A stretch of DNA of 64,000 nucleotides, from IMG/VR virus record IMGVR_UViG_3300001598_000043, positions 1-64,000 of that record, one strand, 5' to 3'. Both the position numbers and the translations under genes were made by a program. The notes beneath the pieces are model-generated. The model saw only the letters and a list, made by a program, of their open reading frames with translations. It made no database searches and was not told the origin of the DNA. Source of the stretch: a virus (taxonomy: Duplodnaviria; Caudoviricetes). Below are positions 2,928-54,244 of the stretch, one piece after another. Every line of letters starts with the position of its first letter. The first letter of the stretch is position 1.

Positions 2928-3668
2928 TTACTTCAATCTCTCCTTTAACACTTTTACAATCTCTTGCGAATATTTGTTTGACTTCTTACCGTTTGCAATA
3001 TAGTCTGCAACTGCTTCTGCCATAGTCTCTGAATAGTTAGGATTATCGTTCTTATTGTGTATAGCCGCATAATGTGATATATGTCCTGCCATATTCTCCC
3101 ACTTATCCCCTAAATTACTTGCGGCTTGTTTAACTATATCTTCTGGTATCTTACCCATTAATGCATCTATCTGTTTTTGGTATGATACAATACTTCCATC
3201 ATGTTTTATTTGACTCTGCATTAAATGACGTTCTAGTGCATGTGTCAATTCGTGAGATATTACTGATGTGTAATCTGTTCCTTGTGGGTGTAGTGATGTT
3301 AATACACCTGCGTACCATTCTTTATGCAATGTTTTATCATATATGCTCTTATCCAATGCTTTTGGCCCAATTAGTATATTATTCACATCATAATCATATT
3401 TTGCCGCAAATCCAGCATCATCTAACTTCTTTGTCATAACATCATCGGCTATGTCTAATGATACGTGTAAATCTTTCAATATTGGAAATTCTTGTGACAT
3501 CTTCTCAAGTGTGTTTGTAAGTTCTTTTATCTGTTTTGATGATAAATCTTCCATCCCACTGTGATATGTTCCATCATCCTGTTCATCCATTGATATATTA
3601 ACACCTAAATTATGCCAGTGTTGTCGTAATTCTTTAAATGACATTGTTTTTGTGCCAACTGCTCCCAT
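2928..3668 (-). CDS. MGAVG-leader zincin metallopeptidase-like protein
   Basis: HELTH (HExxH) plus downstream ETMAEAV third-ligand motif. Confidence 0.7.
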   Translation of the reverse strand: MGAVGTKTMSFKELRQHWHNLGVNISMDEQDDGTYHSGMEDLSSKQIKELTNTLEKMSQEFPILKDLHVSLDIADDVMTKKLDDAGFAAKYDYDVNNILIGPKALDKSIYDKTLHKEWYAGVLTSLHPQGTDYTSVISHELTHALERHLMQSQIKHDGSIVSYQKQIDALMGKIPEDIVKQAASNLGDKWENMAGHISHYAAIHNKNDNPNYSETMAEAVADYIANGKKSNKYSQEIVKVLKERLK

Positions 3669-3678
3669 TCAATACTCC

Positions 3679-4182
3679 TTATTTTTTAGGGAAATATCCC
3701 CACTCTTGAAAACTATCTCCTGCCCATACTACTGTATCTGCTGGCACTGTTGCTTTTACTATGATATAGTTACCATTTAATGCATTCATGCCGTGTTTAT
3801 CTGCGTATGCTTTGCTTAATGTTACCCATGCACCATTTGGAATTGATGGTGTATAGTCTTTAGATACTGCTCTATAGATAGTAACCATCTTTTTGCCAAT
3901 TTGGCTTGCACTTGCACTGTCTCCATCATTACCATATGCGTCCTTGTATTCAGGAAATGACTTAAAATTGGCTGCCGTTGGTACTTCATCGTATCCCATA
4001 TCGTCAATCCAATCACTTGGTGACATAGGATTGTGACCTTCTGACATCTCTGCTACATCTGACACATTTATGCCTTTGGTCACATCTCCTGTAACTTCTA
4101 CAACTTCACCATTTTTATACTCTATCTCTCCACTTGTAGATATCACTCGTCTTCGTGTACTACTCTTGCCAACACTTCCCAT
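3679..4182 (-). CDS. MGSVG-leader protein with ADP-ribosyltransferase-like fold
   Basis: VTIYRAV (R), WVTLSKAYA (T/S) and QEWGY (E) in R-S-E ART spacing. Confidence 0.5.
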   Translation of the reverse strand: MGSVGKSSTRRRVISTSGEIEYKNGEVVEVTGDVTKGINVSDVAEMSEGHNPMSPSDWIDDMGYDEVPTAANFKSFPEYKDAYGNDGDSASASQIGKKMVTIYRAVSKDYTPSIPNGAWVTLSKAYADKHGMNALNGNYIIVKATVPADTVVWAGDSFQEWGYFPKK

Positions 4183-4184
4183 TA

Positions 4185-4313
4185 TTATTTGCCTTTCTTA
4201 CTTACGTGCATTGCTTGGCACTGTTTTGTGGCCTTTTTCTTGGCATCCTTGCTTGTATATTCCTTACCACTGCTGCCACATTTGTACCCTTTAGCTGTCT
4301 TCATAACTGGCAT
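4185..4313 (-). CDS. 42-aa basic protein, not in the ORF track
   Basis: MPVMKTAKGYKCGSSGKEYTSKDAKKKATKQCQAMHVSKKGK; AAGGAG RBS; stop 2 nt before the next start. Confidence 0.7.
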   Translation of the reverse strand: MPVMKTAKGYKCGSSGKEYTSKDAKKKATKQCQAMHVSKKGK

Positions 4314-4438
4314 TGTATATTACTCCTTTACACTCATATAATGTATATGTGACTCATTTAGACGCATATTCCCTTTACTTAATATTTTTATTATTTAATA
4401 CCCTTAAACCGTCTTATTTGACATTCTACGTAGTATTT

Positions 4439-4912
4439 TTAGTATAATGCATATTTTAAAATCTGCATCAATTCAGGTGTCTGATTAAACTGTACTTTGC
4501 CTACATACTTAACATTGATATATGCTTTTTCTGGATTCTTCGCATATGAGATTTTATCATCAAACATTGAATTGCTCATTTTAGTTCTCATATAGTATGA
4601 GCCATTTTTCTCATATACATTGTAAATTATCTGGTCGTCACCTACATTACGATACCATTTACCATCTATAACGCCACTTTTACGATTCTTAATTATAATG
4701 TCCTTAATTTGCTCCATAACTGGCATACTTATATCATCATAATTTACATCTATACTTGAACCTCCTAAAATGGCTTGAATTGTGGTCTTATCTGTACTCA
4801 TAACTTCATCATTATTCTTTACCCACTGTGCAATGTCCTTGGCTGTCAAATCACCTACAACATAGTCTCTTGGTCTTGTATTTTGATTACTACTCTTTCC
4901 TACTGCTCCCAT
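4439..4912 (-). CDS. MGAVG-leader protein, unknown domain
   Basis: 157 aa, GGAG RBS, shared leader MGAVGKSS. Confidence 0.7.
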   Translation of the reverse strand: MGAVGKSSNQNTRPRDYVVGDLTAKDIAQWVKNNDEVMSTDKTTIQAILGGSSIDVNYDDISMPVMEQIKDIIIKNRKSGVIDGKWYRNVGDDQIIYNVYEKNGSYYMRTKMSNSMFDDKISYAKNPEKAYINVKYVGKVQFNQTPELMQILKYALY

Positions 4913-17354: not shown

Positions 17355-17458
17355 CCTCTTCCTCTTCTGGCTCTGGACACATTAAGTCACATAATTCTTC
17401 TGCATCTTTCCACTCACGTTCCGTAAAACCAAAATATTTACATAACTCTACTGTCTTT

Positions 17459-17956
17459 TCATTCATCTTTGCACTCCATCATTAAGACTGATTCAATGAT
17501 AACTTTTGGGTTTGTTTCATACTTGATATTATACTGTAATTTTATGATTACGTCCAATAAATCTTTGCATCTACCAAACTCATAATCACCATACTGATTG
17601 ATTTCTGATTCATATAATGATGGCATCTCAAGATAATCAAAATTTCTTAATATATCATACTTACAGATATCTAACAAAAACTTCATATAAGTCTGCACAA
17701 ACTGTTTTAAATCCTTTCCACTCATATGAATGTTTTCAATTATCTCAATTACTTTATCTGACTTACAATCCATAATTGCATCGTTAAGTCTGAACATTGT
17801 TTCATAATCTGCAACACCCAATGATTTAATTACATTATCCAAAGTTAAATCTGTACTATATGATAGACATTTATCCATAAGTGTGATTGCATCTCTCATA
17901 CCACCTGAACTAATTTTTGCAATGTAATCTATTGCGTTTTCTTCATACGTTATCAT
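17459..17956 (-). CDS. dnaX: DnaX (gamma/tau) C-terminal piece (lid and collar domains)
   Basis: ITYEENAIDYIAKISSGGMRDAITLMDKC continues the DnaX fold; own GGAGG RBS lies inside the endonuclease 3' end. Confidence 0.85.
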   Translation of the reverse strand: MITYEENAIDYIAKISSGGMRDAITLMDKCLSYSTDLTLDNVIKSLGVADYETMFRLNDAIMDCKSDKVIEIIENIHMSGKDLKQFVQTYMKFLLDICKYDILRNFDYLEMPSLYESEINQYGDYEFGRCKDLLDVIIKLQYNIKYETNPKVIIESVLMMECKDE

Positions 17957-18656
17957 CTATATACCTCCAATGTAATTTACCCGCACTATTTCCAAATCTT
18001 GCGGCTTTGCTTAAATTTCCTATACCTGTTAATTCTGTGGCTTGTGTGACAGTATCATAAACTACCCCAGTTTCTATGCATTGTATTCTTTTGCAATTAG
18101 ATGGTCTAATTCCTTTATGATGTTCACTCATTCGTTGTTTAGATTCCTCATTATGATGAAATTCACCAACTTTTCTAATATATTTTGCAACTCTCGGGTC
18201 ATCTTTAGTCAAACCCTTATTCCACGGTATTTGATTATGTTTTCTGTTGGAGTAAACTCCATTTTGCCAATGTTTTTTAACTGTTTTAGATATTGCAAAT
18301 TTCTGCTCATCTGTTATGTGTCGATTTCGTAAAGTTTCTTTGTATTCATCTGTGTGATGATATCCATTAGTACCCTCACCACCTAAACACTCATTGTATC
18401 CAAAATCTCTATTAGTTAAATTATATTCTGCAATTAGTTGTTTTTCCATAATACAAGCATCTTCTAAAGAGAGATTCTCTGCCATTATTATATGTTCAAT
18501 ATTATCCCAACCATATTTCAATATAGCATTATAAAAATGAGGGCTACTTGCATAACCATATCCATTTTTCCATCGTGTCTTCGGATTTTGTTTTGTTATA
18601 CCAACATATCTCTTATTATTAGGCGCTACGTGCATGTATACATAATAACCGTTCAT
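17943..18656 (-). mobile_element. Free-standing GIY-YIG homing endonuclease (NUMOD3/NUMOD1-type tail) inserted in dnaX
   Basis: YVY...YVGIT...RW...E..LI...GYN catalytic domain; HTDEYKE/HNEESKQRMS repeats; KRIQCIETGVVYDT C-terminus. Confidence 0.88.
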
Positions 18657-18687
18657 TTAGTCACCTCGCTAGTTTTGTTATATAATA

Positions 18688-18716
18688 ATTATATTATAAA
18701 GATAGCAGTATGTAAA
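18688..18716 (-). promoter_or_regulatory. Promoter brought in with the endonuclease
   Basis: TTTACA-17-TATAAT in the 64-nt gap after the dnaX-N stop. Confidence 0.65.
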
Positions 18717-18720
18717 TAAA

Positions 18721-19251
18721 CTATTTCATATTCTCCTTATCTATAATATACTTCAATCTACTTACAATACCCTGCTGACTAATTCTGGTAAAATCATATC
18801 TCTGCACTCTTGAAAGAATAGTTTTTGGTATCTTCTGTGGGTCTGTTGTTGCAAAGATAAAAATAGTCTTTGCTGGTGGTTCTTCAATTAACTTTAACAT
18901 AGCATTCCAAGCACTGTTTGATAACATATGACATTCATCAAGAATGTATATTTTATATTCACTATCCAAACTCTGCATCTTTGCCTGTTGAATAATGTTT
19001 CTGATATCTTCAACTGAATTGTTACTAGCCGCATCCATCTCAATTGGATTACCCTTAAATTGATTTATTTCATTTGCAAAGATTCTTGCACAAGTTGTCT
19101 TACCTGTACCAGCACCACCACAAAATAGGTAACAATTCTTAATTGTACCAGTCTTTAACTGTTCTTTTAAAATTACTTTAATCGCATCTTGTTCCGTAAC
19201 ATCATCAAATGTTTTCGGTCTATATTCAATTGCTAAACTCTTACTTGCCAT
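18721..19251 (-). CDS. dnaX: DnaX (gamma/tau) N-terminal AAA+ piece
   Basis: LAIEYRPKTFDDV, GGAGTGKTT, DAASNNSVEDIR, ILDECHML, NAMLKLIEEPP, TILSRVQR. Confidence 0.92.
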   Translation of the reverse strand: MASKSLAIEYRPKTFDDVTEQDAIKVILKEQLKTGTIKNCYLFCGGAGTGKTTCARIFANEINQFKGNPIEMDAASNNSVEDIRNIIQQAKMQSLDSEYKIYILDECHMLSNSAWNAMLKLIEEPPAKTIFIFATTDPQKIPKTILSRVQRYDFTRISQQGIVSRLKYIIDKENMK

Positions 19252-54215: not shown

Positions 54216-54244
54216 ATTATATCAAACTATTATTTATATGTCAA
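54216..54244 (-). promoter_or_regulatory. Consensus sigmaA promoter (repeated cassette type)
   Basis: TTGACA-tataaataatagtttga-TATAAT. Confidence 0.85.

Follow-up and report, generated by a model that had tools for sequence, protein, structure and literature searches.

The window analyzed here, a stretch of 64,000 nucleotides (nt) corresponding to positions 1 to 64,000 of IMG/VR record IMGVR_UViG_3300001598_000043 (Duplodnaviria; Caudoviricetes), contains dnaX, the gene for the AAA+ ATPase of the clamp loader. Our analysis confirms that this gene is present as two pieces, dnaX-N and dnaX-C, parted by a cassette with a free-standing GIY-YIG homing endonuclease gene, and makes it likely that the pieces are translated separately and that the two chains reassemble without splicing. 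A preliminary description made from the sequence had already proposed that dnaX was split by GIY-YIG invasion with neither intron nor intein; the reading frames, intron-negative scans, intact homologues, and conserved signals reported below all agree with that proposal. The source record is a 79.7-kb IMG/VR record of an uncultured phage, rated 100% complete by CheckV.

Two dnaX pieces and the sequence between them

The N-terminal piece was matched by PF13177 (2.9e-29), PF00004 (1e-15), and positions 1-171 of phrog_5846, a phage clamp-loader family of 380 positions. It carries Walker A (GGAGTGKT), Walker B (DECH), and an SRV arginine finger, and in the alignment with Escherichia coli gamma (1njf, E 1.5e-34) GTGKT, DECH, and SRV line up with the gamma motifs. 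The P-loop AAA+ module, including both Walker motifs and the SRC-type arginine finger, was thus found entirely on dnaX-N. The C-terminal piece was matched by the DnaX lid domain PF22608 at positions 15-47 of 49 and by domain III (PF12169), and its sensor-2 motif GGMRDA was aligned to GSLRDA of E. coli gamma. A lid with the sensor-2 arginine and a collar domain III were therefore both present, with the lid shared out over the two chains.

The open reading frame (ORF) coordinates and the ends of the pieces (...RLKYIIDKEN-MK-stop and M-ITYEENAIDY) were as given in the preliminary description, and the ORF calls agree with them. Residue 174 of dnaX-N aligned with gamma residue 195 and residue 2 of dnaX-C with the adjacent gamma residue 196, so that, as had been claimed, the join is seamless in the alignment apart from residues that have no counterpart in intact homologues (MK at the dnaX-N end and M at the dnaX-C start). 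The summed length of 176 + 165 = 341 amino acids (aa) equals that of intact Dp-1 gp17, which is encoded by a 1026-nt coding sequence, and in the intact relative L059 the stretch corresponding to DKEN / ITYEEN of the window is DKENDGITYEKEA. The position of the cut, which had been placed at the boundary between the AAA+ core and the lid, has to be corrected: it lies inside the lid, between gamma residues 195 and 196 and between PF22608 positions about 14 and 15, past lid helix 1. Consistent with this, PF22608 spans the break in intact relatives (residues 165-209 of L059), and in an AlphaFold model of L059 (mean predicted local distance difference test score, pLDDT, 94.6) the break falls in the loop that connects helix 1 of the lid (160-174) to helix 2 (182-192). 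In the 66 intact relatives of ordinary length, a linker that is free in sequence and about 4-60 aa long occupies the break position.

A Pfam scan of the full-length endonuclease missed the GIY-YIG domain, which was matched when the first 115 residues were scanned alone (PF01541, 29.8 bits against a cutoff of 22.6, E 7.5e-7, aligned residues 4-80). The motif residues YVY...YVG, Arg, Glu, and Asn can be recognized in the translated sequence, and phrog_314, "homing endonuclease," was matched at 2.9e-30. The DNA-binding module gave scores below the cutoff with PF20987 (E 0.025) and NUMOD3 (E 0.099). I-TevI is the intron-encoded GIY-YIG endonuclease of T4 td. The window endonuclease is like it in its N-terminal GIY-YIG domain, in a C-terminus that weakly resembles the I-TevI DNA-binding domain (1i3j, E 0.0023), and in having a promoter within a hairpin or operator-like palindrome 5' of the ORF. 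Unlike I-TevI, it is free-standing, and the sequence similarity between the two is low.

The dnaX-N, endonuclease, and dnaX-C genes lie in three different reading frames. The gap upstream of the endonuclease had been described as 64 nt filled by a promoter and a ribosome-binding site, and both were found at 18657-18720: the promoter TTTACA-17-TATAAT (18716..18688) matches the consensus at 11 of 12 positions and is the best in 4.3 kb, and the Shine-Dalgarno (SD) sequence GAGGTG (18662-18667) is located 5 nt 5' of the endonuclease ATG. At the other end, the endonuclease ORF overlaps dnaX-C by 14 nt and does supply its SD sequence, in that the Trp-Arg codons TGG AGG yield GGAGG 7 nt before the dnaX-C ATG. 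An in-frame TAG (17957-17959) immediately 5' of this ATG closes the dnaX-C frame. At the sequence level, each piece accordingly has translation signals of its own, a stop after dnaX-N and GGAGG-7 nt-ATG for dnaX-C.

Promoter-like sites matching at 11 or more of 12 positions were also counted in the whole window. The coding strand had 16 and the opposite strand 1, and shuffled sequences gave an expectation of about 5.5 for both strands together; in view of this strand bias and this expectation, such sites in the phage would mostly be real promoters. This phage apparently relies on numerous strong promoters of the host type. Examples of these sites on the minus strand are at 54244, 52847, 34778, 26308, and 13491.

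Splicing, inteins, and artefacts as alternatives

A different account would have the pieces rejoined after expression, either by RNA splicing through a group I core overlapping the ORF or by protein splicing through an intein or split intein. Group I introns follow the rule that U ends the 5' exon and G ends the intron; here, U could be the last nucleotide of the 5' piece and G that of the insert, a coincidence expected by chance in about 1 of 16 cases. It also speaks for this account that dnaX relatives do have a group I intron (L072) and inteins (L077 and L078). However, the non-coding sequence of the window insert amounts to 64 nt upstream and none downstream, and the group I intron model RF00028 had no match at E up to 10 in a 921-nt scan of the window insert or in a 0.9-kb scan of the L018 insert. 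Rfam scans of 2.1 kb of the window and of 49 kb from multiple loci gave no intron signal; as the L072 intron, too, went undetected in the 49-kb scan, rescans were made at about 0.9 kb. In the same kind of scan, L072 served as a positive control, with RF00028 at E 4e-6 and a second partial match at 0.087. A group I intron with an endonuclease ORF was rejected on the basis of the missing RF00028 match and the 64 nt of non-coding sequence.

An intein or split intein was excluded because the three frames differ, stops flank the junction on both sides, and tails of 2 and 1 residues leave nothing to spare in a sum equal to intact Dp-1 gp17, into which intein residues do not fit. In addition, a methyltransferase ORF overlapping both pieces occupies the same site in two relatives, L041 and L089. 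The earlier statement that there was neither a group I core nor intein residues is borne out by these results, and we regard rejoining by either form of splicing as very improbable.

The interruptions found in relatives by this analysis are of several kinds. In L072, an insert of ~900 nt (3103-4006) breaks dnaX near residue 80, after ...AASNNGV, and contains a NUMOD4/HNH_3 ORF with non-coding flanks of 218 and 128 nt; it is probably a group I intron in a phage dnaX. L077:3602-5569 (655 aa) and L078:3485-5563 (692 aa) are DnaX ORFs whose Walker B region carries an intein, at about residue 106. The PF14890 intein score was 41.3 bits for L078 and a sub-threshold 22.2 bits for L077, and the L078 intein holds a 242-aa ORF (4047-4775) in another frame. 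A further stand-alone dnaX piece, P0104 (259 aa), opens with an intein C-terminal-like ...NNILVHN followed by CHSLSN, which suggests that dnaX of another relative is fractured at Walker B by a split intein.

As the record is a metagenome assembly, an assembly chimera or sequencing artefact was also considered, together with long-range ribosomal bypass of the insert. Independent assemblies of different samples, however, have the same architecture (L018, L087, L088, L085, L086, L089, and L090). A gap of ~765 nt with a complete, expressed-looking gene far exceeds the 50-nt translational bypass that T4 gene 60 needs, and nothing comparable to that bypass was seen in the window. We consider these explanations scarcely credible.

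The features of the locus are listed in Table 1. Nearly all long ORFs of the window, with few exceptions, are on the minus strand. No second dnaX-like gene was found in the whole record; the other dnaX-N match was the delta-prime-like gene only. The very acidic small ORF had no family match, and its position holds other small ORFs in relatives. At 14600-16538 on the minus strand, a 353-aa ORF and an N6/N4 methyltransferase gene (PF01555) separate the delta-prime gene from the delta gene. In the relatives examined, these two genes are near-adjacent, with at most one short ORF between them.

Table 1. Coordinates of the split dnaX locus and neighboring genes in the window
Feature	Position	Strand	Remarks
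dnaX-N	18721-19251	-	176 aa; AAA+ Rossmann module and lid helix 1
Spacer	18657-18720	-	64 nt; sigma-70-like promoter, degenerate palindrome, endonuclease SD
GIY-YIG homing endonuclease gene, free-standing	17943-18656	-	237 aa; I-TevI-like C-terminal DNA-binding region (weak match)
GGAGG Shine-Dalgarno of dnaX-C	17964-17968	-	Inside the endonuclease ORF, Trp-Arg codons
dnaX-C	17459-17956	-	165 aa; remaining lid including sensor-2 motif GGMRDA, and collar domain III
43-aa ORF, very acidic	17335-17466	-	Overlaps dnaX-C and the delta-prime gene
Delta-prime-like clamp-loader subunit	16539-17354	-	PF13177 5.2e-21, phrog_5846; next large gene of the operon
Delta (HolA-like) clamp-loader subunit	13654-14595	-	PF21694 DNA_pol3_delta_C 1.8e-13

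Related loci and the mobility of the inserts

A search with dnaX-N found 77 IMG/VR loci, most of them intact: 69 had one-frame dnaX ORFs, 66 of which were of ordinary length (320-399 aa). Endonuclease-free relatives, which the preliminary description had asked for, were thus found as intact single-ORF homologues, and the window pieces align end to end with such uninterrupted relatives. In three of the 77 loci, dnaX is split in this same loop. L018 has a GIY-YIG gene homologous to that of the window (about 60% identity), L068 carries a GIY-YIG gene unlike it, and in L041 the split site is filled by a gene for a 227-aa N6/N4 DNA methyltransferase (PF01555; L041:2681-3364) that overlaps both pieces.

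A second search, with dnaX-C, covered 5.8 billion proteins with a length limit of 90-289 aa and gave 154 matches, of which 120 were listed. Among the 120 matches listed, about 88 clusters are stand-alone C-pieces of 158-182 aa that start in the loop with M, 2-10 residues, and then a conserved A-L-E-Y-I-A-K helix. The C-piece P0014, which is among them, was read on 14 contigs, with the 50-200 kb class accounting for 8 of the length blocks searched. Gene contexts were fetched for seven stand-alone C-piece proteins. Between the pieces, L087 and L088 have a window-type GIY-YIG gene (65% identity for L087), and L085, L086, and L090 have NUMOD4/HNH endonuclease genes. In L089, an N6/N4 DNA methyltransferase gene (PF01555; L089:1771-2523) replaces the endonuclease gene at the lid-loop site and overlaps both pieces. 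A NUMOD3 endonuclease gene was found for P0068 behind a 477-aa N-piece, which may contain an intein. The comparative setting is unusually rich, as the same loop holds three or more kinds of insert.

The expression signals of the window cassette recur in these loci. The dnaX-C start TGGAGGTA...ATG was found again in L018, L068, and L087/L088, and is the same in L068 though the GIY-YIG gene there is a different one. The promoter is TTGACA-17-TATACT in L018 and a perfect TTGACA-17-TATAAT in L087/L088; the endonuclease ribosome-binding site likewise recurs in L018 and L087/L088, and in L018, L087, and L088 the TGA stop of the N-piece sits within the -35 box. Every cassette type provides a start codon and an SD-like sequence for the C-piece. 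A perfect palindrome of 17-19 bp in L018 (4535-4590) and L087 (675-730) covers the -10 box and abuts the endonuclease SD. The z-score of the spacer hairpin was -7.4 in L018 and -4.4 in L087, and that of the degenerate palindrome in the window was -1.6. The L018/L087 palindrome is a candidate regulatory hairpin or operator for the endonuclease. A promoter inside a hairpin is an arrangement described for I-TevI, segB, and mobE (PMC2988022).

The GIY-YIG genes at the dnaX site share 61-65% aa identity, with a ratio of nonsynonymous to synonymous substitution rates (dN/dS) of about 0.16 and saturated dS; judged by these values, the family is old and under purifying selection. The site is filled in the window, L018, and L087/L088 and empty in their nearest relatives, a presence/absence pattern of the kind expected for mobility. 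In the L087/L088 pair, the endonuclease genes are 99% identical at the nt level versus 91-95% in the flanks, which is a signature of mobility. The L088 endonuclease gene (L088:1185-1898) has a CAA->TAA change (Gln->stop) at codon 23, in the GIY-YIG domain, and appears to be decaying between dnaX pieces that are both intact. L089 and L090 are 93-95% identical in both pieces, although the former holds a methyltransferase gene and the latter an HNH gene, and their similarity stops about 110 nt before the N stop and resumes ~27 nt after the C start. Such a pattern shows that one cassette was replaced by another, with conversion of the flanks. For the window and L018, co-conversion was rejected, as no tract of raised identity was found beside the junction.

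A probable two-chain DnaX and its known counterparts

We next weighed whether the pieces are functional. The alignment of intact relatives contains 149 columns that are at least 80% conserved, and the window keeps 141 of these; the median of intact sequences is 144, with a range of 102-149. The eight changes in the window include K->E, K->Q, F->Y, S->T, C->A, A->S, and D->S. On the C side, dnaX-C keeps 43 of 46 conserved columns, and the other split loci L018 and L041 keep 143 and 147 of the 149, respectively. Together with the retention of all catalytic motifs, these values match the expectation, set out at the start, that the pieces would not be decayed relative to homologues. The window holds a real and, on comparative evidence, probably functional two-chain DnaX, which would load a sliding clamp in an ATP-dependent manner together with delta and delta-prime. 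Reassembly of the chains into an active enzyme is supported indirectly, by this conservation and by the many relatives with the split.

The opposing possibility is that the insertion killed dnaX, that the ORFs are young pseudogene halves, and that the phage relies on the host clamp loader. Several of the splits look recent or independently acquired, and the N-piece of L068 is frameshifted, both of which would fit dead genes. Such an origin is harder to reconcile with the 141 of 149 conserved columns and the intact catalytic motifs of the window, with the delta and delta-prime genes that the phage retains beside the pieces, and with the ~88 diverged clusters of stand-alone C-pieces among the 120 matches listed, some of them on many long contigs. 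It would also leave aside that each cassette type brings a start codon and an SD-like sequence for the C-piece, and that an old endonuclease family under purifying selection at this site requires viable carrier phages. These observations argue that phages with a split dnaX are viable, and we judge the pseudogene explanation unlikely.

Several observations nevertheless weigh against a functional split produced by a mobile cassette. The window, L018, and L041 do not group together in the DnaX tree, where each of the three is closer to intact sequences than to the other two. A shared ancestral split of the window and L018 was rejected for this reason, and inserts must have entered, or left, the lid-loop site repeatedly. 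The spacer hairpin, strong in L018 and L087, has degraded in the window copy. The L087/L088 endonuclease gene is much younger than its flanks. In L068 (4001-4540), another GIY-YIG split, the N-piece has two compensating frameshifts in the first ~50 codons. In view of the tree and of the young L087/L088 endonuclease gene, individual splits could be of recent date, and purifying selection while the gene was split does not strictly follow. The dN/dS of the L087/L088 pieces was 0.07 and 0.20, with distant pairs saturated; these ratios were rejected as a measure of selection in the split state because, with the endonuclease younger than its flanks, they cannot be assigned to it. Apart from these, dnaX of L075 (L075:3989-5035) is broken into several frames, and the frame breaks of L068 and L075 are either decay or sequencing error.

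For the split that we favor, we propose that a self-contained cassette sits in the hypervariable surface loop of the DnaX lid (gamma 195/196), in the order stop codon, sigma-70-like promoter, SD, GIY-YIG ORF, and an SD-ATG within the 3' end of this ORF. The cassette would end translation of dnaX-N after two extra residues, express the endonuclease, and restart dnaX-C from its own GGAGG-ATG, with no RNA or protein splicing. The two chains would reassemble non-covalently: lid helix 1 of the N-chain may pack back into the lid bundle of the C-chain, whose collar domain would anchor the pair in a pentamer with the phage delta and delta-prime. In such a complex, the ATP site would be formed by the Walker A/B motifs and arginine finger of one chain and the sensor 2 of the other. 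During co-infection, the endonuclease would cut cassette-free dnaX alleles, and the cassette would be copied in by recombination, which would explain why related cassettes are found in the same loop of different DnaX lineages.

The closest counterpart is nrdA of Aeromonas phage Aeh1, which is split by the free-standing gene mobE and, as summarized in PMC2988022 with reference to Friedrich et al. 2007, is called "genes-in-pieces"; Crona et al. 2011 (PMC3045599) treat the same system further. In both cases, a free-standing endonuclease gene lies within an essential gene of replication or nucleotide metabolism, two chains are separately translated with no intron or intein, and relatives have one-piece homologues. 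The endonuclease also has its own promoter in both, with a hairpin over the promoter in L018/L087 as described for mobE and I-TevI. The differences are that the host gene here encodes the DnaX clamp-loader ATPase rather than ribonucleotide reductase (RNR), that the endonuclease is GIY-YIG whereas MobE is HNH, and that the break lies in a hypervariable loop and not in a critical region. The insertion-derived tails here are 2 and 1 residues long, whereas those of Aeh1 are essential interaction domains. The dnaX site moreover takes HNH endonucleases and methyltransferases in relatives, and the two-chain activity is here a prediction.

Other replication enzymes are arranged similarly. The T4 topoisomerase genes 39/60 with mobA and the gp43A/B polymerase of Aeromonas phage 25 with seg43(25) (PMC2988022) are each an essential replication enzyme in two cistrons with a free-standing endonuclease gene at the site and products that must reassemble, though the enzymes and phage groups differ from those of the window. 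In fractured genes (Dassa et al. 2009, PMC2677866), split inteins flank a free-standing homing endonuclease. In these too, an endonuclease gene parts the halves, and the host genes include those of clamp loaders; in fractured dnaX, however, the site is Walker B, whereas the window site is the lid loop. The window pieces, unlike fractured genes, have no intein blocks at their ends (tails of 1-2 residues), and the protein would therefore not be religated and would have to work as two chains. A literature search found no report of dnaX split by a free-standing endonuclease, although absence there is no proof. The genes-in-pieces kind of arrangement is already known, and dnaX is a new host gene for it.

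The variety of inserts allows a broader and more doubtful proposal, to which we give tentative weight: the lid loop might act as a permanent "cassette dock" throughout a large group of gut/rumen phages, and a selfish element might now have become part of clamp-loader regulation. After an endonuclease had split the gene, the gap would be an exchange point at which GIY-YIG, HNH, and methyltransferase genes swap by recombination, and with each insert would come a stop, promoter, and restart signals of its own as well as a few linker residues. The N:C ratio and its timing could follow the cassette promoter and hairpin. If true, this would provide a naturally two-chain AAA+ ATPase that receives sensor 2 from a second chain.

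With dnaX, a clamp-loader AAA+ ATPase joins RNR, topoisomerase, and DNA polymerase among the few essential phage enzymes that are apparently two-chain after endonuclease invasion. The permissive split point in the DnaX lid (gamma 195/196) lends itself directly to split-protein engineering and to studies of how sensor 2 and the lid signal the ATP state. Genes split in this way are mis-annotated in phage metagenomes as truncated "DNA polymerase III" fragments. As one gene family holds intact alleles, two GIY-YIG families, HNH genes, methyltransferase genes, an intron, and inteins, the comparative set is a compact natural system for the homing-endonuclease life cycle and cassette replacement.

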